DNA of 64,000 nt from Dictyostelium discoideum. Taxonomy: Eukaryota. The notes beneath the pieces are model-generated. The model did not search any database. It worked only from the letters and a program-made list of their open reading frames with translations, and was not told the DNA's origin. The stretch covers positions 5,440,001-5,504,000 of the forward strand of contig CM000151.3 of the NCBI GenBank assembly GCA_000004695.1, given 5' to 3'. Position 1 is the first letter of the stretch. Every line of letters starts with the position of its first letter. Both the position numbers and the translations under genes were made by a program. This document shows, one piece after another, positions 1,783 to 59,588 of this stretch.

Positions 1783-3022
1783 AAAAATAGAAAATAGAAA
1801 AAAAAAAAAAAATATTAATTTTTATTTTTATTTTTTCATTTTTTTTTATAAAAAAAGTAAAATTGTTGAATGGTTAAAAGAAAATCAAGTTGTTGAATTA
1901 TTATATGGTGAAACAAGTCATATTCAATTATTACAAAAATGTACAGATATATTAAAATTCCTTGCAGAACAAAAAGCATTTGATAGAAAGTATTTAGACT
2001 TGATATGGTCAGCATCTGAAGGAAAACATGAAACAATAGAGAATGCAATCTATGATAGTATTGGAGCGATCGCTCCATTACTTCCACCTGAAGATATCGA
2101 TTATCTCTTTGACAAGGTTCAAATGATTCCCTACAATCATTACACTCAAATAACATTGAATTTAGTACGTTCATTAACTCAAAGACAACAACAAGCCACC
2201 AATTCCGATGGTATTACATCAAGAGGTTTGGATATATTTTGGAATTTAATGCAAGAAGATTGTGATGTTTGTAATGATCTCTCCAATGCATCATTGGTTT
2301 CACTTCAAGATTCTTTCCAATTCTATCCAAATCAAAGGGGACATTTTTTAACTAGAGCCTTGGACCATATAGATAAACATCGTTCAGTTGTAGTTTCACT
2401 TCGTTTAGTCTTTCATCTAATCAATAGTTTTGCAGAGAAAAAAAAAAAGAGAGATTTACATGGTGGCAATAATAATAATAACAACAATATGATGAACAAT
2501 GAAGCAGAGATGGCAAATGTAATTGAAAGTATTGATAGTCAACACCATTTAGTAGATTTATTATACAATCATTTAGTTTATTATACTACACAATGTAAAC
2601 AGATTATATCGAATGGTTACAATACTGATAGAAATGCAATGAATGTAGATGGTGGTGGTGGAGGAAGTGATAAACATCCATATAAACCACCGCAAGCTTG
2701 TGATGATTATACGTTTGCTGATAGAGTCAGTCATATGGAACAAATTCAAGATTATTTAAATTTTATTCGTTTCTTATATGACAAGTCAAGTTTATCCCTT
2801 ACTAAACAACATATCGATATTTGGTGGAATATCTTTGTTCTAGAACCAGTATCACACTCTGATAGAACTCACTTTTTCAATTGGGTCATTGACCATTTAA
2901 GTTTGGATGAACATCAAGTTTTGTATTTTATAAACAAATTCCAAACCTTAACTTTTACAGATTTAGATATTACCGGTTTCGAATTTTATAAATTTTGTTT
3001 TAATTTAATTAAATCTCATGAT

Positions 3023-3053
<31 letters not shown>

Positions 3054-3080
3054 TAGATAATAATAATAATAATAATAATA

Positions 3081-3111
<31 letters not shown>

Positions 3112-3805
3112 TTTAATTGGTTTAGATGATTTATGGAGAATTTTATTAGAAGCACAAAATGAACAAGTTGGAAGAGCAGCATGTTCATTTATAATTGAAC
3201 AATATAAAGATTATAAGAATCCAGAAGAATTTTTAAATACTTGTATGGCTAAATTATCAAAGGTACCAATTGGTAACGATTCAACAATGGATCCAATTAA
3301 TTATATGTTAGTAACACGTTGTCTTTCATTGGTAAAGAAATATTTAGAAGAATTTGGTTCAAGATCATCCGACTCATTTAAGAAACATTTTTCACCATTG
3401 ATCACAGTTAGATTTAGTAGTCAAAGAAATGTATTTAAATTTGACGTAAAGAGTAGTGAATCAATTGGTACCATAAAACAAATGCTTGCATATAATATTA
3501 AATCATCAGAACATTGTATTTGTTTAACTTTTCAAGGTAAAATGATGGTTGATGATTGTCAAACAATTGAAGATTTTCGTGTTGGAAATGGTGATACTAT
3601 CAGTTTCCAAGAGATTGGAGAACCAAGACAACCACTCACCTATGTTCAATCGGTTTCAATTAATTTTGATCAAAATAATTTCGCATTACTTTTCAGTTTG
3701 TTAAATATTCAATCGATTGCTCAAGATGTTTGGGATTTATTAATGTTATTACCAGTTAATAAACAAATATTTAGTGAAATAACAATCGATATTGTAAATA
3801 ATAAA

Positions 3806-3881
<76 letters not shown>

Positions 3882-6800
3882 GTAATGAAGATGGTCAACA
3901 ACAACAACAACAACAACAACAAAATATAAATTGGGATAATTTATTTGATCCAAAATCATCTTATCGTTTATTATATAGTTTATTAATTATTGAATCAATG
4001 GTAGTTAATGATAGTTATCATAGTAGTGATGGTAATGATAATAATTTAGATGGTCCAAATGAATGGAAACAAAAGTTTATTTCATCAGGTGGATTTGATC
4101 ATTTAATAAAGGTTTTAATGACAACAGATCTTCAAAATCCATCACGTGGTGGTAAGAGAAATACTTGCCTTTCAGTACTTTTAAGAATTATTTTTAGTAT
4201 TTTAGAGAGCAACCATTTCGATTTTAATGCTATCACAAGCCATCAAATTTCACCAGCCGACTTTTTAAATCGTTTAATCAGCTTAACATGGAATCAAGTA
4301 ATACCAACTACACATGAAGAGAATCTTTCAACTCATGAAACAGAGGATGCTATGGTTGTTTCTCATTTGATGCATTTAATTGTTGCCATCCTTTCGAATA
4401 ATGATCAATTGTTTAGTATATTCACAAAGAATAAAAACATTTTACAATGGATTTCACTCATAATCCTCGATAGTAAAGATACTTTTCTTCGTGATAAAGC
4501 TGCCAATGGTATTCGTGACATTTGTCATTACATTTCACCAGCTACAACAAAACATTACTTTTTGGACCAATTCCTTACCCTACTCTTTAAAAATGTCGCA
4601 GACGATCGTCAATCATCAACTTGTCAACAATTCTTTGATGTACTCAATCATTTATTAAATGAACAAGTTAGATCGTTAACTATTGATGCTTCAACTTCTT
4701 CTTTTACATCAGTTTATGCCGATCTCTTGTTAAAGTTGGTAGATATGATTAAAACTCAACCAATCATTGAATCAACAGCAATTTACCAACCAGATGTTTT
4801 ATTAATGGGATTATTGAATCTTGTAAAGATTTTAATTCAAGACAATAATGAATTCAAGCTATTGGCAGGTCAAAAGGGTGGTTTAGTTAAAGAGGTTTTC
4901 CATGAATGTCTTTTCAATATTGCAACTGCAGATAATCATGGTTCAACTTGTCCACCAAAATGTAAAACAAAGGAAAGTAGAGATATTTGTTTTGCTGTAC
5001 TCTTGGAGTTGGCCAAAGGTTGTGAACCAAATTTACGTGAAATTACTACACTCTTAATGGAACACCATAAACCAGAGGAAAAACGTTCACTTTGGAGTTA
5101 TTTCCCAGCTGGTAATGAAAAATCAATCACAGGTTATGTTGGTTTAAAGAATTTAGGTGCCACTTGTTATATCAATAGTTTAATGCAACAACTCTTTATG
5201 ATTCCAGGTTTCCGTTATAATATCATTCAATCCGAAGAGAAATATAACTCACCACAAGAACAACAAGAATCACTCCTCTATCAATTGAAAATCATATTTG
5301 CAAATCTTCAAGAGTCTGAAAAGAAATCACACGATCCAAAAGATTTCTGTTTAACTTATAAATATGATGGTCAACCAATCAATACATCGATTCAAATGGA
5401 TGCTGATGAATTCTTTAATATGCTTTTCGATAAACTAGAGAATACTCTAAAATCAACACCACAAGAAAAGTTATTAAAAGATTTTTTCGGTGGTAGTTCA
5501 GTAAATCAATTCATCTCTCAAGAGTGTAATCATGTCTCTGAACGTGAAGAACCATTCTATACCATTAGTGTCGAAGTAAAGAATAAAAAAGAGATTCAAG
5601 AATCATTACAATTGTTTGTAGAGAGTGAAACTTTAGATGGTGATAATAAATATTTTTGTAGTAGTTGTTCTCAAAAAGTTAAAGCATTAATGAGAAGATG
5701 TATCAAAGATTTACCAAATACTTTAATCATTCATAACAAGAGATTCGAGTTTGATTTAGATCTTATGAAGAGAACCAAATTAAATGATGCACTTCGTTTC
5801 CCAATGACAATCGATATGGAACCATACACTAAAGAATATCTCGAGAGAAAAGAAGCAATCGAAAAAGCCAAAGAAAAGGGTGAACCAATTCCAGAGGTTG
5901 CTCCATTACATCCACCATCCTATTATCAATATGAATTGGCAGGTATTTTAGTTCATACAGGTACAGCCGATTCTGGTCACTATTATAGTTATATTAAAGA
6001 GCGTGAACCAATTTGTGAAGGTCAACCACGTCGTTGGATTTTATTCAATGACCAAGCAACCGAGGTTTTCAATCCTGATGATATTTCAAAGGCATGTTTT
6101 GGTGGTTATGATGATCAAAGCAAAGGTAATTTCCGTGCTGGCCCAAGAGTTAACAATGCTTATATGTTATTCTATGAACGTTCTTATATTCAAGGTGAAA
6201 TGACAAAGAAATATGAAAACATTAAACAATCTGATGCTTCTAAATTAGTACCAAAAGAAATGTTTTCAAGTGTTTGGAAAAAGAATATGAAATTCTTAAA
6301 TGATAAGAATATTTTCGATACAAATTATTTCTCATTCTTATTAAATATTATAAAGTTAGATGAACCATCCGATTTAGATTCAAATAATCAAATGGATTTC
6401 ATTTCTTCTCAAGAATTATTAAAAGGTACTGATTCAATTGATGATCAAAAACTAAGTAGTCAAGATAATGAATTATCAAGTGGTGGTGGTGGCGGTGGTG
6501 CAACAAGTGAATTATCAGGTGGAGAAGTTGGTTTATATAATGGCGGTAGTGGTAGTGAATTCAATCAAACTATGCAATCAATTGAATTAGGTACTAGATT
6601 TTTAATTGAAACTTTATTCCACTCAAAAGATAGAAAAATGTTAGGTGATACTGTAAATTATTTAATCTCATTATATGAAAGAAATTTAGATGCTTGTTAT
6701 TGGTTATTAAATACTATCGTTGAACAACAAGGTTCTGATAATTCTTGGATTAGACAAGTATTTTTAACTTGTGTAACATTTGATCCAAGAGAAGCTTTAA

Positions 6801-9800
6801 TCAAATTATTATTATCAGTTGTTAAAACATTAATTCCAAGTGAAAAAGAAAACTATGGTTTAGATGAAGATAATGAAATGATGTCAGAAAATAGTGGAGC
6901 ATCTATTACTTCAATCGATGAGGAGGATGGAGATGATGAAGATGATGGTGGTGGTGGTGATGATGATTCAATGAATACTTCATCTGGTACAACAGGTAAA
7001 GGTAAACAAAAAGTATCATCCTCTTCTTCCTCTTCTTCTTCCTCTCAAATGAATTATGATCAAGATGAAATTTATCCAAGTTTTTCAAGCCTAAAGAAAC
7101 CAAAATCCATCATATTTAAGTTTATGGATGTATTTTTAGATTATATCAAGGAGGCACCAATGCATTGGAAACATTTTAGTTATTACTTTTTGTTTATCAA
7201 AGATTTTTCATTATTGGGTGAAGAGGAAAGAAAATATTTAATCAATAGAAATGTTATTGGCCGTTTAATTGATCTCTTTTTGGGTGATGAATCACAACTC
7301 TCCAAAACCATTCCACCACATAAGAAACCAAAGATGGGTGATAAATATAGTAGTCCACAATTCCTTAATATGATTGAAACCATCAATATCTTGGTTCATA
7401 GTTGTCATACTAGATATAGTAAGATGGAGTTTGACAAGAATGGTTCCTATCAAACAATGCCTGGTCAATTCACTTTGAATTTAGCTCCAATGCCAGAAAC
7501 CGATATGGAGTTATTATATGATCCAATATTTGTTGCCAAAGCAATTAAGGATACTCTATTAATCAAACCAATCACAGAGATAGTCTCTTATATTTGTTTC
7601 AATGATATCGATACTACCAATACTATCACTCAATATATTGAAGGATTCGATCAATCAAAGACATCCTTAGAGGTTTTACTTCCATTGATTAAATTAGATG
7701 ATCAATGTAGAGAAGAACGTGTTGACATTGTAATTCCACAATATATCAATATCGTTGAGGAAATCTTTAAAAATCGTAATAATTTGTCATTCTTAAAAAC
7801 TTTGGTAGAAGCTGCTCAACAATATTATTTCATTTCAGATTGGTTCAAGAAGAACTTTGATCGTTGGGTTACAAGTTGGCTCATTGGTAATGAACATTCA
7901 GAGGTTAGAAGTGATGCTTTCACATTACTCATTCATATCAATCAATTGAATCAAGAACAACCAGATCATAGTGCAATCATTGAAACCTTTTCATTCCTTT
8001 CTAGTGTTGATACCATTAAATATGCCAAAAAGATTTGTAAAAAAGATAAAGATCATCGTGGTGTTTTCAAATTTGAATATTATTTCAAACTACTTAGATT
8101 GTCTTTGGTCGTACCAGAATGTAAACAAATTTTCACACAAGTCGCTTCATTATTCTATGGTTTTATCACTGATATCATCTTTCAACAAAATGAAATCGAT
8201 AGAAATCGTCAAGAGCTTACTCACTTTTTGGTCGATGTACTTCGTGATCAACCTGAAAATATTGCTCTCTTACAAAAGGATCAATGTTCAACCAAACTCA
8301 TGGACTACTTTATTAGTATTTCATCCAAAGAGGATTTGAAACAATTCAATCAAAAATCTTTACCATCTTTCTATGAACTCTTATTCATTTTATCTTGTGA
8401 TAAACAATCATTCCTCGAATATGTCGTTGGTCATTCCAATTTCCAATGGGCTTGCAAATTTTTATTATGCGAATGTGGTGAATATCAAGATATTGCCGTC
8501 TTCCTTTTCAAATTATTAGAGTTGGTATCAAGAACACCAAAACATGCTCAATCTTTGATTAGTCACTTTTTAGGTTTTCCAAACTTTTTCTTTTATCCAG
8601 CTCATTCATTGAAAGTAATGGATATTCTCACCTTTTCAAAGAAAGAAGCCATTTGTTTTGTTAATTCTCAAGGTATCAATGTATTTAGTAAATTCTTGGG
8701 TTCAAGTAAAGACTCTCAAGAGAATGTACGTCAATATCCAAAAGCAATCGATATCATTTTTAAGGTTTTATCATTAATTCACTCACCACAGTCACCACAA
8801 GATTCTTCTTCTCCAAAATCAACAAATGTAATCGTAATCGATGAAGATATCGCCTCCTCCTCTTCTTCCTCTTCATCAAATATTCAAAATCCAACCAATG
8901 TAAATGTAAATGAATTAACTCAAGAGGTAAAAACATTATCATCTGTATTATACAATTTAATGGATAGTGGTGAAATAGTTTGTCAAAAAGCTCAAAAACT
9001 TTTAAATTTTATTGCAGTTGAATCACCTGATATTACAATTTTAACATTTAGTGATTTCATTACAAAATGGATAAATAAAAAGAATTCAATGATAAATAAT
9101 AATATTAATTTAATTAATAATAATAATAACAATAATAACAATATGATGAATTCAATTAATTTGGTTGATAACGATCCAAAACAACCATCAATACCACAAT
9201 TTTCACATGGTAACCCAAGTCAACAATATCCATCACCATTTGCTCAACAACCACCACAACAACAACAACAACATTCAAGATTAAATCAAAATCAACAATT
9301 ATTAAATCAATTTTCATTTAGTGAAACATTTTTCAATTCATTAATTGAAATTGTTTTAATTTCAATGCAAAGTGCAACCTCTCAAAACTCAAATCCATCA
9401 TTGGAATCAAAAGCATCAATTTCCCTTGCAAAATTAGTTAAAGAAGTTTTAAATATTAACATGGAGATGGGTTCACGTATTCTTAGTCGTGTAATTGATA
9501 GTTTAAAGGTTGAAGATAGAAATTCAGTGATCTCTCATTGTATTGAACATGGTTTTATTGGTACTTGTGAAACTTCTCCAACAACTCCAACCTCACTTAA
9601 CTCATTGTATGATTTAGTTAAATCTTTCCTTCAAGACAAAGCAAATGAAGAAACTGTTAATAACTTTTGCACCGATCTTGAAGATAAAGTAACCACATCC
9701 ATCGTTTCCATTAAATCATTAGAGAATTCCAATGACAACCAAATCGATACTCATTTATTATCCTTAATAAATGCACTCCATCAAATTCAATTGTTTAATA

Positions 9801-9952
9801 ATTGTTGTCCAACTGGTAAATCTCATATATCCCTCTCGAATATTATCAACTCTTTAAATGAATTTGCAAACAAAGAGTGCTGTAACATTCAATCTGAAAA
9901 TGCCACATTATTTTTAACTTCTTTCAAACCAATTAGACCATCAAATAATTAA
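439..9952 (+). CDS. Very large USP-family ubiquitin carboxyl-terminal hydrolase (about 2,990 aa), with a USP9X/USP24/USP34-like architecture: long N-terminal helical region, UBL domain, central USP catalytic domain and a long C-terminal extension. Proposed exons: 439..617, 865..1192, 1369..1742, 1858..9952.
   Basis: Cys box GLKNLGATCYINSLMQQLF and His box YELAGILVHTGTADSGHYYSYIK are present in the 2000..9952 ORF. A ubiquitin-like segment (FDVKSSESIGTIKQMLAY...DTISFQ) precedes the catalytic domain. Three 5' introns have GTAAGT or GTATGT donors and AG acceptors, and they preserve the frame (phases 2, 0, 2). Intron 3 uses cag|GTAAGT, with the G shared with the CAG. Poly-N and poly-Q runs occur in-frame. 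Confidence 0.8.
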
Positions 9953-28662: not shown

Positions 28663-29149
28663 TTATTTATTAAATATTAATTTAATTGTTGAACCATCTG
28701 AATTAAATGTTGGAATAATTAATAAATTATTTTCATCATTAATTAAACTATTTATATCAATTTGTTTTTCATATTTTTCAATTAAATATTGTATCATCTC
28801 TAATGGTAACCCAAGTAAATTTGATTTTAAATAATAATTAATTTCATTCATATTTTAAAATCTCTATTTCAAATCTTTTTTCTACCATTTTAAATAATTC
28901 TAATTCTTTCCAATTAATTAAATATTCTAAACATTCTTTATTAAATTCATTACATCCAATATTTTGATCGTGTAACATCATTCTATCTTTTAACATTGAT
29001 TGATTTTTGGTTTTAATTATTATTAACAAAGGGAAATTATAATATCCAAATGTTTTATAAAATAATTTTAAGTTAATCTCTTTTACATATTGAAATATTT
29101 TATTCCTTAATATATCATTTTTAAAAACTTTAAAAAATAATTTCATCAT
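28663..29149 (-). pseudogene. Two short ORFs (28844..29149 and 28663..28851), each in a different frame, both +1 from the next ORF in the 28663..29149 series, directly upstream of the 407-aa ORF. They are either frameshifted remnants of one gene with 27402..28625 or separate exons of a Dictyostelium-specific family gene. The first begins MMKLFFKVFKNDILRNKIFQYV, which is F-box-like.
   Basis: ORF1 ends EIEILKYE*, and ORF2 begins inside it at +1 (atgaatgaaat). ORF2 contains IQYLIEKYEKQ, which echoes the ORF1 end. I found no convincing splice signals joining them. Confidence 0.3.
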
Positions 29150-29502
29150 TAAAAATTAAAAATAAAAAAACAAAAATAAAAATAAAAATAAAAAACTAAA
29201 AAAAAAGTAATTAAAATGAAAAAAAAAAAGATATTTTTTAAAAAAAAAAAAAATCTAAATTTATTCAATTTTAATAGTATTATGAGTTTTTAATTCATGT
29301 TGGTAAAAATTAAACAAAGAAATATTTGAATCTAAAATATTTGTTAAAGAATCTAAACTTTTTGTATGATTAATTAAAAGACTCCATCTTTCTCTTTTTT
29401 GGAAATAATTTGCATATCCTATGAAAAATAATCCTATTCTTGGTATTAAAACTAATTTTTTAATCTTTTTTTTTTTTTTTTAGAAAATAAAAATGTTAAG
29501 TA

Positions 29503-29941
29503 TTAAAGTAAGAAGGAAAATTTTTTTTTTTTTTTTTTTTTTTTTAATTTTAATATACATACAGTTCTTTGATCAGATTCACACCAATAACTCTTTGAAT
29601 TATCACCTTTTGTTCTAACTAATGACACTATTAAATAACTAAAATGATAATATTGAGCCATTTCAATTGGTAAAACATTGATAAAGGGTAAATCTAAAAT
29701 ATTCTTTTTGATTAAATTTCTTTGAGCTTCAAATGGAGAAACGATTACAATCTCTAATGGGTCCAATTTTAAAGTTTTTAATAAAAATCTAACTAATTTA
29801 CAAACAAACTCGCATTCTTTAATATTTGTAAACTTTTGAATCATTTCTTTGTCATCTAAATTTTCATTATCCATAATTTCTAAACTTTCAATTGATTCTA
29901 AATTAAAAAATGAAAATATTGGTTTTTCCTTTTTGTGAAAG

Positions 29942-29987
<46 letters not shown>

Positions 29988-32900
29988 TAGAATTATATAA
30001 AGAAAATAAAAAAAATAAAAAAAAAATAATACTTACTTTATAAAAATTAAAAAATGATAAATCTTGAAAATTAATTTTATCTAAAGATAATAAATTTGAA
30101 AAGATTGATGGTATATAATTTGAAGTTAAAGTAAATGGTCTAATATAATTTGATAATCTTTTGGAGAGATTAATTTTCATTAAATTTCTAAACTTTTTTG
30201 ATTTAACACTGATTGGACCAACTGAAATATCACTAACACTATCACCAAAAAGTATTACATGATCAGCTAAATTTAAAGCACATAAAGTTTTTGGTTCTAC
30301 CTCTTGATGTGAATTATCAACGATTACCCATTTAATATCTAAATTTCTAATTAAATCATTTGTTGCATCGGTTGATGTACAAAAAACTATATTTGAATTA
30401 TTAATATTATTTAAATCAATAATTGTTGAACAATTTGAAAATTGAAATATATTTGATTGATTATTATTATTATTATTATTATTATTATTTTTATTATTTA
30501 ATTTATAAAATTGATTTTTAAAAAATCTAATCATTTTAAAACTATTACTAAAATCCAAATCTAAAAATGTTTTACATGATGAATCCTTTTGAAATATAAT
30601 AAAAAAAATTATTTGTTAAGATTAATAATTATTTCTTTTTTAAAAATAAAAAAAAAAAAAAAATACATACTAAACTAAAATCATTTGGACCACAAATTAA
30701 AATTCTATTTGTTAATTTTAAATTTTGAATTGAAAATTTTGAAATTAAAAATGATAAAGTTGTTTTACCAGAACCAGGTTGACCTTCAATGATGGTTACT
30801 TTATTATATAATGAACTATGAACTGCCATTTCTTGTGAAGAATTTAAAGAGAAACCAGAGTTTGGAAGTTTAGATGGTGAAAATGGTATTAACTCGTTTC
30901 CAACACCAGTTGAAATGATAGATTGACAAGCTGATGGGATTTTTAATGGGGATTTTATATTTGAAAATAATGATACCCCAACCATTAAATCATGATTGAA
31001 TGAATCACGATGAGTAATTTCGACGAAAAAGGGTGTTCTCATCATTATTTTCTCGATTTTTGCTGGAAATTTAATCTTTAACCATTTTTCATCTTTAATA
31101 CCCACCTTTGAAATTATAGAATGAGTTGAAAATGGTGGGTTTCTATCATTACCCAAATAAATACAACAAATAAAGTCACCTTTTGAAATCTTTTCTAAAT
31201 TTAAATTTAATGGTAGTTCAATTGCTCCAACATATTTTCTCTTTTTCTTACTCCAAGAAATCAAAACTGATGATAAAAAAATTGAATTTTCATTTTGTTG
31301 TTGTTGATGATGGATACTATTACCAACATTCTTATAAACTGAATTTAAATCAATCATTGTACTCCAAAATTCAATATAATGATTAAAATTTTCAAATTTT
31401 GATCCAATTTTATAATCTTGAAAAATTTTATTTAAAAATATATCTTGATTCTAATAATAAAAAAGAAAAAAATAAAAAAGTTAATAAATTATAATTTTTT
31501 TTTTTTTATAGATTAAAAAAAAAAAACTTACAAATTTATGAAAACAATTAAAATTTGGTGTTGATTTAATTGAATTTAAAAATGATAATTCTAATTGATT
31601 TGATTGATTATTAAAAAATAATAAAACTTGAATTGAATGTAAAAGTTTTACAAAAATTTTATCATCATTTAAATTTGATAAATTTAATAATAAATGATTC
31701 TTTGGTAATTTAATTTCAACTGAATTATCAAATTGAACAGTTGGTTTAAAGTTTGAAATTGAAATTGTAAATAATTTATTATATTCTTTACACCAAACTT
31801 GTAAATAATCATTTGAAATACCAATTACTAAAACATTTACAACTATTGATGATTTTAATTGAATCAATGATTTAGTTGAAATCTTTTGAAACTTTTTTAA
31901 TGCTATAACTGATTTTTGAAATTTTTCATTTAAATGTAAAATTAAATTTTCTAAATTTAAAAATTCAATTGGTAAACATTTATTATTATTATTAATATTA
32001 CTATTATTATTATTATTATTATTATTAATTGTACTTGATAAATTATTATTATTATTTGGGTTATTATTATTTGGGCTATTATTATTTGGATTATTATTAT
32101 TTGGATTATTTTTATTAAATCTTAAATTTAAAATTCTTTGATTATAGATATCTGAATATCTTTTTAAAGGTTCAGTAAATTCACTATAGTAAGGAAAGTG
32201 TTGATATTTCTCTTTTTTAATTTTAAATGATTCCAAATTTCCTGAAACTTGATTTAAAATATAATTTAAAAAAAGTTCTTCATTAGTATTACAATTAATA
32301 CTAAGATTTTGATTTGATTTGAATGATTGAACCAATTTAAATAGATCAGTTTCTTTAAATAAATTTGATTGAACTAAACTATTTGAAACTTTATAAATTA
32401 AACCTTCGATTCCCCATTCAGCCAATGTACAAGTAACAATGAAATTTGCCAACATTAATACCTCTTGAATTAAATTTGATACTGATTCATTTGGTAATTG
32501 AGGTTGTTTAACTTTAATTGGAACATTTAAGATTGTATTAAATTCAAAAGATACAAATTGATTATTTGAATTTATAATTAAATTTTTTGAAAGGACATGA
32601 TTCTTGAATACCAATAAACTAGTTTCAATATCAGATTGTTGAAATTTACTATCTTGGTCAATTTCAAGTTTATCATCGATTGGTAAACCTTTAAAAATAT
32701 TTTGAACTTGTGAATAAGAAAGATTAGTCGTTGATTTAATAATTGACTTATGGATACGTCTTGAAACTGATTCACCAATATGATTTAAACCACCAAAACT
32801 CCATTCAACTGTAAAACATTTTCTTTCTTTACCAGGTGACAATGATAAGTTTTGAGTAATAAATTCTTGATCAATGATATCAACTCTATCAATACCACCA

Positions 32901-33595
32901 AAATCAATTGAAATACCATTCATACAAGCAATTTTATCCAATGTTGATCCAATTTCAATAAAACTTGTGCAATCAAGAAAATGAACAAAAATTGTAACTT
33001 TACCATCCAAACTCTTTTTAAATGAAAATGCATATGAAATATTATTATTATTATCCTGTTCAATTGTAAAACATAATAAATCTCTTAAATCTTCATAATC
33101 TTCATTATTATCAAAAAAAACAATTGATTTATTTGATAATGAATTTATAATTGTATTGGTTGCTGTATTAGTTGAAGTAGTGGTTGTTGTAGTTGTAGTA
33201 GTAGTAGTGGTGGTGGTGGTGGTGTTTGTTGTGGTAGCTGTTGATAAATTTGAAATTGGCGATAAATTATTTTCAATTTTTATAATTGAAAGTTCTTTTA
33301 AAAACTCATTCGAAATTGCCCAATGATTATTAATTGTACCAATTGGAAATAAAGTTGATGATGACCAAATTGATTCTAATTTAATTTCATAAATGATATT
33401 ACCATTTAACAATGGTAATTTTAAAAGCTGATTATTATCAAATATTAAAACCATTATACATGCGAGTTTACAGTTTGTTGGTTCAAAGAAAAGGAATTGA
33501 TCTTTTCTTTTTAAAAATTTACAACAATAAATTTCTTTGTGTTGACTTTTAATAATTGATATAACTTTACATTCAATTAATTTATTATTATTAGT

Positions 33596-33666
<71 letters not shown>

Positions 33667-35025
33667 GATTATTATTATTATCATTAATTTGTTGATTATT
33701 ATTAATTATTTGATCATTTTGATTTAAATTTTGAGTTCTTTTAATGGTTTCTTTAAAAACTTTATCAAAAATAACTTCATCATGTTGTTGTTGTTGATTA
33801 TTTGTTAAAATTTCAACTGCAACTATATCACCATGAAAGGAACGATTTCTATTAAAATAACCAGTTATATTAAAAATTTTATCTTGAAAATATAAATAAT
33901 TTGGTTTAATGGTTGCATTATTTGGATTATTTTTTTTTATATTAATTTCCCCAACTATAATATTTTTCTTCTATTTAAAAAAAAAAAAATAAAAATAAAG
34001 TCAATAAAAATTTAAAAATTAAAATTTTTAAAAAATAATAAAAAGGTGATAATTACAATTAATGAATTATTAATTTCAAATTCAGAATAATGTTCGAGAT
34101 AATAATTATTATTATTTGAAATTGTTAAAGGTAATAGTGAATTTGAAATTGATACTTGTGAAAGAGATGAAGAATAAGATGATGATGAAGAACAAGTTGA
34201 AGAAGGTGGTGATAACTGTTGATGGCAATTTCCATTGTTACCAAAGAATTTATTATTTTGATTACTATTGAGCGAAGGTGATGATAATCCAAAATTTGGT
34301 TTCTTTGATTTGTTTCTTTCAACCTTTCTATGATCTAATTCAGAGTGTGCAAATGCACACCATCTACCTTTTTTACATGCTTGATTGTTTACATAATCTT
34401 TACAAAATTTAGTTTTATATACCAGTGGATGATACATTACTTCAACATCATTATGAGAGAATCCACACTTTTTTTAAAAAATAAAAAAAAAATAAATAAA
34501 AAAAAAGATTAAAATTTTATTCTTCATATGTTATTTATATTATATAAAAAAATATATAAATTATAATTACATTTTCATTATTGCAAAGAGTTTGACAAAG
34601 ATTATTTGAATAAAGTAGTTTTCCATCGCTATCATATGGTGGTCTTCTACGTTCATCTCTTTTGTGATAAAAGAAACTAATTGGGAAAAAAAAAAAAAAA
34701 AAAAAAAAAAAGTTTAAGCAAAATTCCAAAAATTAAAAAAAAAATAATAAAAAAAAATAAAAAAATATAAGTTTTAATTACCAATCTCTATCTTTTGAGC
34801 ATTTAATAATCCCCAATCTACATTCTTGGGTTTTATAACTATTGATATACTTTGAGTGACATTCTTCAGGTGACATCAATTTAAATGGTTTATTATTGTT
34901 ATTATTTTTATTATTATTATAATTATTAGTGGTAGTATTATTATTATTGTTGTTATTGTCGTTGTTATTGTTGATATTATTTGTATTATTATTAATATTT
35001 GGGATATTAGTGGTAATTTTAAATT

Positions 35026-35029
<4 letters not shown>
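29503..35029 (-). CDS. Proposed single seven-exon gene encoding a HELZ2-like RNA-decay protein of about 1,650 aa: three CCCH zinc fingers, cold-shock-like and RNB (RNase II/Dis3-like) domains, then a UPF1-like SF1 helicase. Exons (minus strand): 35029..34782, 34676..34571, 34467..34057, 33970..31532, 31450..30671, 30585..30037, 29928..29503.
   Basis: CCCH fingers: YKTQECRLGIIKCSKDRD|CFFYH spanning intron 1, a noncanonical LCQTLCNNEN|CGFSH, and the canonical YKTKFCKDYVNNQACKKGRWCAFAH. A CSD-like block is GYFNRNRSFHGDIVAVEI. RNB motifs are NLIQEVLMLANFIVTCTLAE and EPLKRYSDIYNQRIL. Helicase motifs are LNSSQEMAVHSSLYNKVTIIEGQPGSGKTT (motif I), VIVDNSHQEVEPKTL (motif II-like) and VIVSPFEAQRN (motif V). 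All junctions use GTAATT, GTAAGT or GTATGT donors and AG acceptors with matching phases. The proposed intron 31451..31531 (donor TTT|GTAAGT, acceptor ttattattag|AAT, phase 0) removes the RNB ORF's TAA and a second in-frame TAG. The helicase frame is open from that acceptor with no upstream ATG. Confidence 0.6.
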
Positions 35030-35783: not shown

Positions 35784-36722
35784 ATGCGTGTATTTTTATT
35801 TAAAATTGCAAGTAAACAAAGATGGACACTTTATATTGAAAAATCTGAATTCTTCTCAAAGAAAGTTGATATCGAACCTACAATTGTAACAACATCAAGT
35901 AATAATAATAATATAACATTACCAACTCAATCTAAAGGAGTTTTAATATTAAATAAATTAAAGAATATAGCAATTGAATCAAAGAATGAAATTGATAACG
36001 CTCAAGATGGTGTTGGATTAAAAGGGAAATTAAAATCATTATTATCATATTTAGAATCTAAAATCCATCCAGAAGAAGCAGTATTACAACAATTTTCAAA
36101 AATTAATGATAATAATTTAATTAAAAAACATAATCATCATAACCATCATAATCATATTCATCATAATAATAATAATAATAATAATCAAAATGAAACTGTA
36201 AAACACCAATTTGAACATTTTAATGAACAAAGAGATAAAGCTAGTTTTACAATATATTATCCATCAAATATTGGATATAGACGTGCTAATAGATTCTCAC
36301 AAGTATTAATGAGACAAAAGATACGATTCCATCAAAAATGGATGATAATCAATAGTTTATTAATTCCAATTACATTTGCTGCCACAATTTTACCAGGCCC
36401 AAACATTTTCTTAGCCTATAATCTTTATAGATTATATGGTCATTTCCAAGCATTAAAAGGTTGTACCAATCTATCAAGATACACTAAATCACATGGTAGA
36501 TTATTATTTAAACCAAGTTTAGAAATGTTTGAATGTTTAGATGGTGAATTACTACAACAACAACAACAATTTAAACAACAACAACAACAACAACAACAAC
36601 AGCAAGAAGAAGAAGAACAATCAATCGATAATCCAAACTCATATGAAAAATTATCCACAAGATTAAGAATACCAGGTTTATTTGATTATGTAAAAAGAAT
36701 TGAAACTATTGAAAACAAATAA
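35784..36722 (+). CDS. Conserved hypothetical protein of 312 aa with a pair of adjacent hydrophobic helices (WMIINSLLIPITFAATILPGPNIFLAYNLYRLY), possibly an organellar membrane protein. It has His-rich, Asn-rich and poly-Q tracts.
   Basis: A single uninterrupted ORF with a basic N-terminal region, the motif PGPN...YN.YR...H..ALKG and the C-terminal motif RIPGLFDYVKRIE. No family could be assigned confidently from memory. Confidence 0.6.
   Translation: MRVFLFKIASKQRWTLYIEKSEFFSKKVDIEPTIVTTSSNNNNITLPTQSKGVLILNKLKNIAIESKNEIDNAQDGVGLKGKLKSLLSYLESKIHPEEAVLQQFSKINDNNLIKKHNHHNHHNHIHHNNNNNNNQNETVKHQFEHFNEQRDKASFTIYYPSNIGYRRANRFSQVLMRQKIRFHQKWMIINSLLIPITFAATILPGPNIFLAYNLYRLYGHFQALKGCTNLSRYTKSHGRLLFKPSLEMFECLDGELLQQQQQFKQQQQQQQQQQEEEEQSIDNPNSYEKLSTRLRIPGLFDYVKRIETIENK

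Positions 36723-43234: not shown

Positions 43235-48130
<4,896 letters not shown>

Positions 48131-55059: not shown

Positions 55060-59588
<4,529 letters not shown>

Follow-up and report, generated by a model that had tools for sequence, protein, structure and literature searches.

A single HELZ2-like gene of Dictyostelium discoideum with degenerate nuclease and helicase modules: a likely multi-site RNA-binding protein

Overview

We consider it likely that one intact gene on chromosome 2 of D. discoideum encodes a protein of HELZ2-like architecture in which both enzyme modules are degenerate, and which acts as a multi-site RNA-binding regulator or clamp. Because both modules have lost key catalytic residues, an RNA-binding regulator is likelier than an RNA-degrading enzyme: the amoebal protein is built like HELZ2 (zinc fingers, RNB, helicase 2) and probably lacks its chemistry. 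In the mechanism that we propose, seven short, very AT-rich introns would be spliced from one transcript to give a 1,700-residue protein. Its Unkempt-type fingers should read short single-stranded RNA motifs, its DIS3L2-like module, with replaced active-site aspartates, would contribute RNA-binding surfaces only, and its UPF1-like helicase, with an intact P-loop, is predicted to bind nucleotide and RNA without efficient hydrolysis or unwinding. The protein as a whole may function in the repression, storage or sorting of specific mRNAs. The analysis shows the gene structure, the orthologs' single-gene status, the identity of the domains and the replaced residues; that both activities are lost, that the protein binds RNA and what its role is are inferred.

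Gene Structure

The gene occupies 35029..29261 on the minus strand of the window (the whole 64,000-nucleotide stretch analysed), between DDB_G0275377 on one side and a small gene adjoining DDB_G0275373 on the other. Its eight exons (19-29% GC) and seven GT..AG introns (81-108 nt, 6-10% GC) give a coding sequence of 5,103 nt, joined in frame throughout with one terminal stop:

34782..35029, minus strand: exon 1, aa 1-82 plus 2 nt; a poly-N leader, then Cys 1 and Cys 2 of finger 1
34677..34781, minus strand: intron 1, 105 nt, GTAATT..AG, phase 2, 10% GC; interrupts finger 1 (CSKDRD/CFFYH); C. fasciculata, H. album and P. violaceum each have an intron at this alignment column
34571..34676, minus strand: exon 2, aa 83-118
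34468..34570, minus strand: intron 2, 103 nt, GTAATT..AG, phase 0; interrupts finger 2 (CNNEN/CGFSH); position kept in three orthologs
34057..34467, minus strand: exon 3, aa 119-255; end of finger 2, finger 3 (YKTKFCKDYVNNQACKKGRWCAFAH) and a Ser/Asn-rich linker
33971..34056, minus strand: intron 3, 86 nt, GTAATT..AG, phase 0; position conserved in orthologs
31532..33970, minus strand: exon 4, aa 256-1068; DIS3L2-like CSD1-CSD2-RNB-S1 module, broken up by poly-Q, poly-T and poly-N tracts
31451..31531, minus strand: intron 4, 81 nt, GTAAGT..TTATTATTAG, phase 0, 7% GC; connects the RNB and helicase frames
30671..31450, minus strand: exon 5, aa 1069-1328; UPF1-1B-like N-terminal helicase part, Walker A and motif Ia
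30586..30670, minus strand: intron 5, 85 nt, GTATGT..AG, phase 0; same position in C. fasciculata and P. violaceum
30037..30585, minus strand: exon 6, aa 1329-1511; poly-N insert, Walker B, degenerate motifs III and IV
29929..30036, minus strand: intron 6, 108 nt, GTAAGT..AG, phase 0; same position in P. violaceum
29563..29928, minus strand: exon 7, aa 1512-1633; RecA2 part with degenerate motif V
29465..29562, minus strand: intron 7, 98 nt, GTATGT..AG, phase 0; same position in C. fasciculata and H. album
29261..29464, minus strand: exon 8, aa 1634-1700 and TAA stop; motif VI remnant (IPRIGLFFIG) and C-terminal tail

The open frames and splice structure are far beyond chance. At a stop probability of 9.4% per codon, P is ~1e-36, 1e-12 and 1e-16 for uninterrupted runs of 829, 273 and 370 codons, and seven of the eight strong donor hexamers in the gene (GTAAGT, GTATGT or GTAATT) are the seven donors. 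A preliminary description of this DNA had proposed three canonical introns upstream that join the Cys-rich exons in frame, and these are present as described (introns 1-3). It had also ended the gene at 29503 with a product of 1,652 aa; with intron 7 and exon 8, which it had missed, the protein reaches 1,700 aa, an extension backed by the matching intron position in two orthologs and by the protein record P0011. Intron 6 is in frame and free of stops, and therefore reads through in lists of open reading frames (ORFs); its long poly-T run has 13 nt fewer in another assembly.

In a newer D. discoideum assembly the locus is annotated as one gene of 1,700 residues, with the same start (the ATG at 35029, just after a poly-A tract) and the same stop in exon 8, and the DNA of that assembly differs from the analysed gene only within introns 1 and 6. 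The exact 1,700-aa sequence had no match in the protein collection searched; that it equals the newer assembly's product is concluded from the shared start, stop and length. From D. discoideum, the protein libraries returned just a C-terminal fragment, P0011 (355 aa), identical to residues 1346-1700 and using introns 6 and 7, both of which are spliced out. At least this one record fits the expectation that gene callers would split the gene, while the newer assembly and five other dictyostelids have it annotated whole.

Those five, H. album, C. fasciculata, A. subglobosum, T. lacteum and P. violaceum, carry single-gene orthologs of 1,543-1,864 aa with the Pfam domains zf-CCCH_UNK, RNB, AAA_11 and AAA_12, and neighbouring genes are conserved. 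Introns 1, 2, 3, 5, 6 and 7 lie at conserved positions in the orthologs. Identity among the six species is 29-46% across ~1,300-1,570 aligned residues, with the fingers nearly invariant.

The Junction Between RNB and Helicase Frames

Intron 4 is the point at which the gene could appear to be two, since it contains an in-frame TAA (31483-31481) and TAG (31453-31451). The ORFs on its two sides (31481..33454 and 30629..31357) share a minus-strand frame, as first reported, with nine codons rather than ten between the TAA and the TAG. The helicase frame is indeed open from 31450, directly past the TAG, with its first ATG only at 31357. The phase-0 GTAAGT donor was correctly placed, at 31531, although it precedes the TAA by 16 codons and not three; the acceptor TTATTATTAG ends at 31451, giving the 81-nt intron that fuses both frames, as had been proposed.

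Three orthologs have the corresponding junction inside one uninterrupted exon (P. violaceum, exon of aa 604-1381; C. fasciculata, exon of aa 801-1106; H. album, exon of aa 1082-1263), and the ortholog alignment has no gap at the D. discoideum splice point. Intron 4 is absent from these three species and is specific to D. discoideum, where we infer its splicing from the sequence and from the orthologs. A zinc-finger/RNB gene ending at TAA 31483-31481, followed by an independent helicase gene starting at ATG 31357, would fit the two separate entries in the ORF list, and the C-terminal fragment that constitutes the D. discoideum protein record implies that annotators have handled the locus as divisible. 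This arrangement is nevertheless very improbable: the 31 open codons upstream of the helicase's first ATG are conserved in orthologs (e.g., Y-I-E-F-W-S-T-M-I-D-L-N vs. Y-I-N-Y-W-T-S-I-I-D-L-N), the 81 nt that separate the frames resemble an intron in composition and carry consensus ends, both sides fall in one exon in three orthologs, and the newer annotation has one gene. On sequence and comparative grounds, the two ORFs are parts of one gene with eight exons and 1,700 residues.

Retention of intron 4 within this one gene could in principle yield a shorter, 1,084-residue zinc-finger/RNB isoform beside the full-length protein. Intron 4 was gained recently and is lacking in the three other species examined; its phase 0 and its stops would produce a clean protein end after the S1-like domain. 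Against this stand the perfect GTAAGT donor and good acceptor, and the inability of the other species to make such an isoform by retaining intron 4; we regard regular production of the shorter form as distinctly unlikely, and take the full-length protein as the gene's product.

CCCH Zinc Fingers

34339..34849, minus strand: CCCH three-finger cluster, Unkempt-type, aa 61-161, spliced across introns 1 and 2

The three fingers originally claimed are all present, including the noncanonical one, with spacings of C-x6-C-x5-C-x3-H (spliced), C-x3-C-x4-C-x3-H (spliced) and C-x8-C-x5-C-x3-H. The cluster is almost invariant in the alignment of six dictyostelids, and PDB matches to Unkempt have E 1e-8 to 8.5e-10, with that to 5elk (E 8.5e-10) collinear over all three fingers. 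Pfam zf-CCCH_UNK matches stay below the curated cutoff, the D. discoideum protein scoring 17.8 bits against 31.1.

Nuclease Module

33176..33970, minus strand: putative CSD1 and CSD2, aa 256-520; GYFNRNRSFHGDIVAVEI motif conserved across six dictyostelids
32126..33094, minus strand: RNB domain, aa 548-870; Pfam PF00773 E 7.7e-36, PDB DIS3L2 E 2.4e-17
33023..33070, minus strand: degenerate RNB motif I, FTIEQDNNNNISYAFS in place of the canonical T-I-D-P-x-x-A-x-D-L-D-D-A-L
31571..31858, minus strand: S1-like beta-barrel, aa about 960-1055, after RNB; beta strands with pLDDT 55-74

Exon 4 carries the module. In a structural model, which is weak overall (mean pLDDT 51), the best Foldseek match is Dis3L2 (E 6e-27 over the whole exon-4 product), and the pseudonuclease Ssd1 was matched as well. 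The S1-like region falls within the Dis3L2 alignment and is conserved among dictyostelids ('s1' profile). For the CSDs, Pfam gave sub-threshold matches and no detection at threshold; we treat them as putative, from the NRNR..GD.VAV motif and the low-confidence model, which best matches full-length Dis3L2 and has beta-rich segments here (pLDDT about 70-79). The proposed single polypeptide with three CCCH fingers, CSD, RNB and SF1 helicase is strongly supported, its CSD part lying below the Pfam threshold.

The RNB domain had been described as an exoribonuclease, a reading that its active site does not support. All four metal-binding Asp equivalents of motif I are replaced in D. discoideum; across the six dictyostelids, the equivalents of RNase II D201, D209 and D210 are lost in every species (6/6) and that of D207 is retained in some only. 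In the same RNB alignment, each DIS3L2-, RNase R- and HELZ2-type sequence shown has the full set of four. Human HELZ2 is active despite replacement of one of its four aspartates (PMC10516660), so missing catalytic residues do not prove inactivity outright. By contrast with human HELZ2, three to four Asp are gone in every dictyostelid examined. The CSD-CSD-RNB-S1 module is most likely a pseudonuclease that would retain only RNA-binding surfaces, like yeast Ssd1.

Helicase Module

30761..30784, minus strand: Walker A P-loop GQPGSGKT, intact
30313..30318, minus strand: Walker B Asp-Asn (GAT AAT); Asp-Glu in UPF1-like helicases

Residues 1084-1671 align with UPF1 (PDB 2gjk, E 7e-10), and Pfam AAA_11 matches with E 4.7e-16. 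The N-terminal part carries an SWSKKKRKYVG motif, with a weak UPF1_1B_dom match in orthologs. The second Walker B position is N in 6/6 dictyostelids; of the 84 other UPF1-like helicase domains aligned with them, 82 have E. Motifs III, IV and V (Q of motif III, QYRMH, FQG.E, NVA.TRA) are degenerate. Such a helicase probably binds nucleotide and RNA and lacks efficient ATP hydrolysis or unwinding. With its P-loop and motif Ia well conserved, the module could have some residual NTPase activity or an unconventional one.

Degeneration of catalytic motifs in both enzymatic domains could also come from relaxed selection on a decaying pseudogene rather than from new function. The domains are interrupted by long homopolymer-encoded tracts, and the full-length D. 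discoideum protein was not found in protein libraries. Yet the frame is intact over 5.1 kb in a genome where open runs average about 11 codons, the splice sites have been conserved along with the intron positions, and the fingers, P-loop and many non-catalytic motifs are invariant. Moreover, the same substitutions occur in six species from all major dictyostelid groups, which makes them ancient and implies that the protein has stayed intact ever since. Decay is accordingly the least credible of the alternatives, with hardly any probability left to it, and we retain the reading of an intact gene.

Comparison With Known Systems

The closest known counterpart of the finger region is Unkempt (PDB 5elk; PMC11436793), a CCCH translational repressor, of which one three-finger cluster shares spacing and linker motifs (YKT.pC...C.yYH..D.RR.P and HP..YKT..C.D....C..G..CAFAH) with the amoebal cluster. 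Unkempt itself has two such clusters and a RING finger, and neither nuclease nor helicase. For the nuclease module, DIS3L2, an active uridylation-dependent 3'-5' exoribonuclease, is the best solved-structure match by sequence and by fold; it lacks fingers and helicase and, unlike the amoebal protein, retains the DxxxxxDxDD active site. A canonical DIS3L2 copy is present in Dictyostelium as well (P0003 of D. citrinum). Yeast Ssd1 (PDB 7am1, 'Structure of yeast Ssd1, a pseudonuclease') shares the DIS3L2-like CSD-CSD-RNB-S1 fold and the loss of catalytic residues, and both proteins have presumably kept the fold as an RNA-binding module. Ssd1 lacks zinc fingers and a helicase, and activity would have been lost independently, in fungi for Ssd1 and in dictyostelids for the amoebal protein. 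With UPF1 and UPF1-like SF1 helicases the amoebal helicase shares the RecA1/RecA2 core with a 1B-like insert, UPF1 proper being among its best helicase-only matches; it differs in lacking the CH (UPF2-binding) domain, in its DN Walker B and in its degenerate motifs III/IV/V.

In animals, HELZ2 is a 3'-5' exoribonuclease induced by interferon; it combines zinc fingers with two UPF1-like helicase domains, in the order ZnF-Hel1-CSD-CSD-RNB-S1-Hel2 (PMC10516660). The preliminary description had seen a domain order different from that of HELZ2; the amoebal order is in fact that of HELZ2 minus helicase 1. Shared features are N-terminal zinc fingers including CCCH types and a CSD-CSD-RNB-S1-like block directly before a UPF1-like helicase, and invertebrate HELZ2-like proteins of about 1,700 aa (OB-RNB-helicase) likewise lack helicase 1. 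The differences are the Unkempt-type CCCH triple in place of alternating C2H2/CCCH fingers, the absence of helicase 1, and the loss of the RNB catalytic Asp and the Walker B Glu.

Descent of a true, catalytically active HELZ2-family member from the common ancestor of Amoebozoa and animals, with helicase-coupled 3'-5' degradation of structured RNA, would account for the shared OB/CSD-RNB-S1-helicase order, and it gains from the single Asp substitution tolerated by human HELZ2. When the RNB-to-helicase profile was searched against 1.84 billion proteins, animal HELZ2 and HELZ2-like proteins were the best full-length matches after dictyostelid orthologs (E 7e-43 to 1e-24), but they rank high only because both domains are present. 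Per domain, HELZ2 scores 50-90 bits for RNB and 60-124 bits for the helicase, whereas the best RNB-only proteins reach up to about 160 bits and the best helicase-only proteins, including UPF1 proper, 145-168. Group profiles on the amoebal RNB give 79-102 bits for HELZ2 vs. 87-141 for DIS3L2/DIS3-type proteins, and in neighbour-joining trees HELZ2 domains form their own clades without dictyostelids. OB_HELZ2 had no match at threshold, and a weak one (20.5 bits) in one ortholog. The Unkempt-type fingers are matched by no retrieved HELZ2-like protein, and none of the six species has the D201, D209 or D210 equivalent or the Walker B Glu. In the domain scores and trees, neither the RNB nor the helicase is specifically closest to HELZ2, and we judge active family membership unlikely. 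The amoebal protein is better read as a lineage-specific, probably non-catalytic HELZ2 analogue.

Gene structure at the locus

The gene occupies 35029..29261 on the minus strand of D. discoideum AX4 chromosome 2, between DDB_G0275373 and DDB_G0275377.

Annotated genes and open reading frames considered in the window
2000-9952, plus strand: very long ORF, 2,650 aa
27405..28625, minus strand: DDB_G0275373, exact match of an ORF
28663-29149, minus strand: overlapping pair of small ORFs (62 and 101 aa), ~110 nt downstream from the stop of the gene
29261..35029, minus strand: gene described here, 8 exons
35784..36722, plus strand: DDB_G0275377, Mit_KHE1 protein, exact match of an ORF
43964-48130, minus strand: very long ORF, 1,388 aa; translation from the first start codon has no exact database match
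55515-59588, minus strand: very long ORF, 1,357 aa; translation from the first start codon has no exact database match

The ORF list and a three-frame translation place the RNB ORF (31481..33454) and the helicase ORF (30629..31357) in one frame, as the preliminary description had proposed. The upstream (RNB) frame is open from 33970 (829 codons), and the helicase frame is open from 31450, directly after the TAG, with no ATG before 31357, again as described. Removal of the proposed 81-nt intron 4, from GTAAGT at 31531 to TTATTATTAG ending at 31451, fuses ...CFHKF to NQDIFLNK... in phase 0. The local details needed correction: the donor is present as claimed, 16 codons before the TAA rather than three, and the TAA and TAG are nine codons apart rather than ten. 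The three proposed upstream introns (105, 103, and 86 nt, all GTAATT..AG) were likewise found, and splicing them out assembles three CCCH fingers. Two more introns (85 and 108 nt) are needed in the helicase part to build the whole model, and the 3′ end as first drawn lacked intron 7 (29562..29465) as well as exon 8 (29464..29261). The complete model has 8 exons and a 5,103-nt coding sequence for 1,700 residues.

Composition sets the introns apart, with a GC content of 6-10% in all of them against 19-29% in exons, and seven of the eight GTAAGT/GTATGT/GTAATT hexamers within the gene coincide exactly with the seven donors. In sequence that is 78% A+T, stops should recur about every 11 codons, and chance therefore does not account for uninterrupted stretches of 829, 273, and 370 codons (P about 1e-36, 1e-12, and 1e-16, respectively). 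Intron 6 (29929-30036) is in frame and stop-free, and the listed ORF at 29503..30558 runs straight through it, translating its poly-T tract as poly-Phe; such read-through is a trap for gene callers. We regard it as virtually certain that the locus produces one transcript with seven introns, encoding a single protein of 1,700 residues that comprises three RNA-related modules.

Elsewhere in the window, newer annotation places only a 100-aa product, without a Pfam match, at 28663-29149. The lack of exact matches for the 1,388- and 1,357-aa ORFs suggests that they too are parts of multi-exon genes.

Annotation, orthologs, and synteny

In a newer D. discoideum assembly (GCA_054883475.1) a 1,700-residue gene has been called, with the same start and stop as our model. 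Across the gene, this assembly differs from the window only by an A/T SNP at 34714 (intron 1) and by a poly-T tract in intron 6 (29971-29983), 13 nt shorter there; the exons are all identical. The preliminary description had suggested orthologs as a check on the single gene, and the fused protein is indeed annotated as one gene in five other dictyostelids: Heterostelium album (PPL_00423), Cavenderia fasciculata (DFA_03585), Acytostelium subglobosum, Tieghemostelium lacteum, and Polysphondylium violaceum. Each of these orthologs combines zf-CCCH_UNK, RNB, AAA_11, and AAA_12, some of the matches being below cutoff.

Three orthologs were mapped onto genomic DNA for comparison of exon structure. 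In all three the RNB-helicase junction point falls within one uninterrupted exon (C. fasciculata aa 801-1106, H. album aa 1082-1263, P. violaceum aa 604-1381), which in P. violaceum is 2.3 kb long and extends from RNB motif II to past Walker A. The protein alignment has no gap at the D. discoideum splice point, and coding sequence is conserved across the 31 codons 5′ of the helicase ATG. The positions of introns 1, 2, 3, 5, 6, and 7 are each common to at least one ortholog; intron 4, judging from these alignments, is a gain specific to D. discoideum. Two separate genes, as the in-frame stops would have it, were rejected given that the junction is intra-exonic in three orthologs, that a 1,700-aa gene has been called, and that conserved codons lie upstream of the ATG. 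Independent annotation, orthologs, ortholog exon structure, and those codons all indicate that this is one gene, not two.

Several neighboring genes are common to the orthologs, namely those encoding Mit_KHE1, a SNARE, and a 2OG-Fe(II) oxygenase. The Mit_KHE1 gene is the divergent upstream neighbor both in D. discoideum (window 35784-36722) and in C. fasciculata (locus L003 1-196). In P. violaceum the ortholog has the SNARE and 2OG-Fe(II) oxygenase genes on either side (locus L005 664-1218 and 9211-9971); in D. discoideum these two genes are found a few kb upstream (locus L001 13136-17120).

As the preliminary description had anticipated of gene callers, at least one existing record (P0011, a 355-residue D. 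discoideum protein) is a fragment of this gene, equal to residues 1346-1700 of the model with introns 6 and 7 spliced out. This is the sole D. discoideum protein among the best 150 matches; the five more distant dictyostelids are present among them, and D. purpureum, D. citrinum, and other species of the genus Dictyostelium contribute no ortholog. Either gene callers fail at this locus in the most AT-rich genomes or the records are missing from the library. The protein collection holds no exact match to the 1,700-aa model or to the 657-aa RNB ORF. Databases nonetheless already contain the fused protein, unnamed, for the five other dictyostelids and for the newer assembly of D. discoideum; the insight behind the gene model was right, yet it is no novelty for databases.

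The H. album model PPL_00423 (P0001; locus L004 3001-5440) has an acidic N-terminal extension (aa 1-340, four extra exons) found in no other ortholog, and it lacks the RNB motif IV segment (FPY|IPYETQ) around aa 1080. Both peculiarities are probably annotation errors.

Three RNA-related modules

Residues 61-161 align collinearly with one of mouse Unkempt's three-finger CCCH clusters (PDB 5elk; E 8.5e-10) and are almost invariant across the six dictyostelids. The three collinear fingers keep the Unkempt spacing and linker motifs and thus form an Unkempt-type cluster; the Pfam zf-CCCH_UNK score is under the curated cutoff. Unkempt itself has two such clusters, which read UAG and U/A-rich RNA motifs, and it represses translation (PMC11436793).

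Residues 256-1068 form a DIS3L2-like module, with Pfam RNB (PF00773) at 548-870 (E 7.7e-36; 124 bits, cutoff 29.3). The CSD1 signature NRNR..GD.VAV is found, with the CSDs scoring below Pfam thresholds, and the RNB profile and CSD-CSD-RNB-S1 arrangement together place the module within the RNase II/RNB fold, a class that includes pseudonucleases. The closest solved relative by sequence is S. pombe DIS3L2, and the closest by fold are human, mouse, and S. pombe Dis3L2 (Foldseek). An AlphaFold model of exon 4, of low confidence (mean pLDDT 51) and used for fold-family matching alone rather than active-site geometry, has Dis3L2 as its best Foldseek match over the whole length (E 6e-27), with the yeast pseudonuclease Ssd1 also listed. 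In all DIS3L2-, RNase R-, and HELZ2-type RNB domains aligned, motif I keeps T-I-D-P..A.D-L-D-D-A. The D. discoideum motif I is FTIEQDNNNNISYAFS, and the other five dictyostelids are equally divergent. None of the six species retains the equivalents of E. coli RNase II D201, D209, and D210, and only some retain that of D207, leaving the module short of the four motif I aspartates (D201, D207, D209, and D210) of an active RNase II/RNB enzyme. Dictyostelium separately encodes a canonical DIS3L2 whose active site is intact (P0003, from D. citrinum).

The UPF1 helicase core, with its 1B region, aligns to residues 1084-1671 (PDB UPF1; E 7e-10). AAA_11 scores 59.8 bits in D. discoideum (cutoff 27) and AAA_12 reaches its cutoff in four orthologs, so that by these profiles the module has a UPF1-like SF1 helicase fold. 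The P-loop GQPGSGKT (Walker A) and motif Ia are intact, whereas the full signature of an active enzyme of this type (Walker A GxxxxGK[TS], Walker B D-E, and motifs III-VI) is incomplete. Walker B reads D-N in all six dictyostelids; of 84 other UPF1-like domains, 82 have D-E. Motifs III, IV, and V are degenerate, with the Q of motif III, QYRMH, FQG.E, and most of NVA.TRA gone.

Predicted loss of catalysis and possible roles

At the level of conserved residues, both enzymatic centers look dead: the missing RNB aspartates predict loss of 3′-5′ exoribonuclease activity, and the Walker B D-N predicts loss of ATP-dependent helicase activity. Such losses could mark a decaying pseudogene. That reading was rejected, since the substitutions are common to all major dictyostelid groups and the six proteins retain 29-46% identity over about 1,300-1,570 aligned residues. 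The dictyostelid groups are estimated to be several hundred million years old. The changes in catalytic residues are best read as ancient, maintained divergence, not decay.

The fingers would recognize specific sequences of single-stranded RNA, the RNB module would bind RNA without catalysis, as the one in Ssd1 does, and the helicase module would bind nucleotide and grip RNA with no productive hydrolysis. The whole protein may then be a multi-site RNA clamp or regulator, not a degrader. We consider this non-catalytic reading the probable one, with some reserve; human HELZ2 is active despite replacement of one of the four aspartates (PMC10516660), which calls for caution.

Several consequences follow. 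The D. discoideum annotation is corrected from a 355-residue fragment to a 1,700-residue three-module product. The HELZ2-type finger/RNB/helicase combination exists outside animals too, with both catalytic signatures lost, yet conserved. A non-catalytic contribution of the architecture, by RNA binding or scaffolding, becomes testable in a genetically tractable organism, and the RNB module would join fungal Ssd1 as a second and independent RNase II-family pseudonuclease. The literature searched contained no paper that connects Dictyostelium with HELZ2, or with pseudonucleases and DIS3L2 in combination, and the reading of this locus as an Unkempt-finger, pseudo-RNB, and pseudo-helicase fusion conserved across Dictyostelia appears to be unreported.

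Comparison with HELZ2

HELZ2 comprises six zinc fingers, helicase 1, a CSD-CSD-RNB-S1-like region, and helicase 2 (PMC10516660). The preliminary description had seen a HELZ2-like protein with a different domain order; the amoebal protein in fact follows the HELZ2 order, minus helicase 1. Common to both is a single polypeptide that joins cold-shock/OB, RNB, and UPF1-like helicase domains. Invertebrate HELZ2-like proteins of ~1,700 aa have the same OB-RNB-helicase layout, some of them likewise without helicase 1, and none of the six dictyostelid proteins has a helicase match N-terminal of the RNB domain. The fingers differ: HELZ2 has an N-terminal array of alternating C2H2-like and CCCH fingers (PMC10516660), while the amoebal protein has three CCCH fingers alone, of Unkempt type, and the dictyostelid finger profile had no match in any retrieved HELZ2-like protein. 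Pfam OB_HELZ2 (PF25049) gave no match in the D. discoideum protein at E<=1 and, among orthologs, matched only in T. lacteum (20.5 bits, under the 29.3 cutoff); every HELZ2-like protein tested passes.

When 1.84 billion proteins were searched by profile, animal HELZ2 ranked directly after the dictyostelid orthologs because it contains both domains. Scored domain by domain, HELZ2 falls below the best RNB-only and the best helicase-only proteins, the latter including UPF1 proper. Neighbor-joining trees, which have long branches and no support values, put the dictyostelids outside the HELZ2 clades, and together with group-profile scores they reveal no specific HELZ2 affinity. Given the lower per-domain scores, this lack of specific affinity, the other finger type, the absence of OB_HELZ2 at threshold, and the missing catalytic residues, we do not file the protein in the HELZ2 family. 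We lean toward a fusion that arose independently of HELZ2 rather than one shared by descent. That social amoebae independently built the finger/RNase II/UPF1-helicase architecture of the animal antiviral enzyme HELZ2 and long kept it with both catalytic centers off, whether from the outset or later, is a tentative proposal, somewhat short of an even chance; the protein would then be a conserved “double pseudoenzyme” that holds or sorts specific RNAs, and a natural experiment showing a non-catalytic function for this domain combination. The amoebal protein has HELZ2 architecture but, as its residues read, probably not HELZ2 chemistry.
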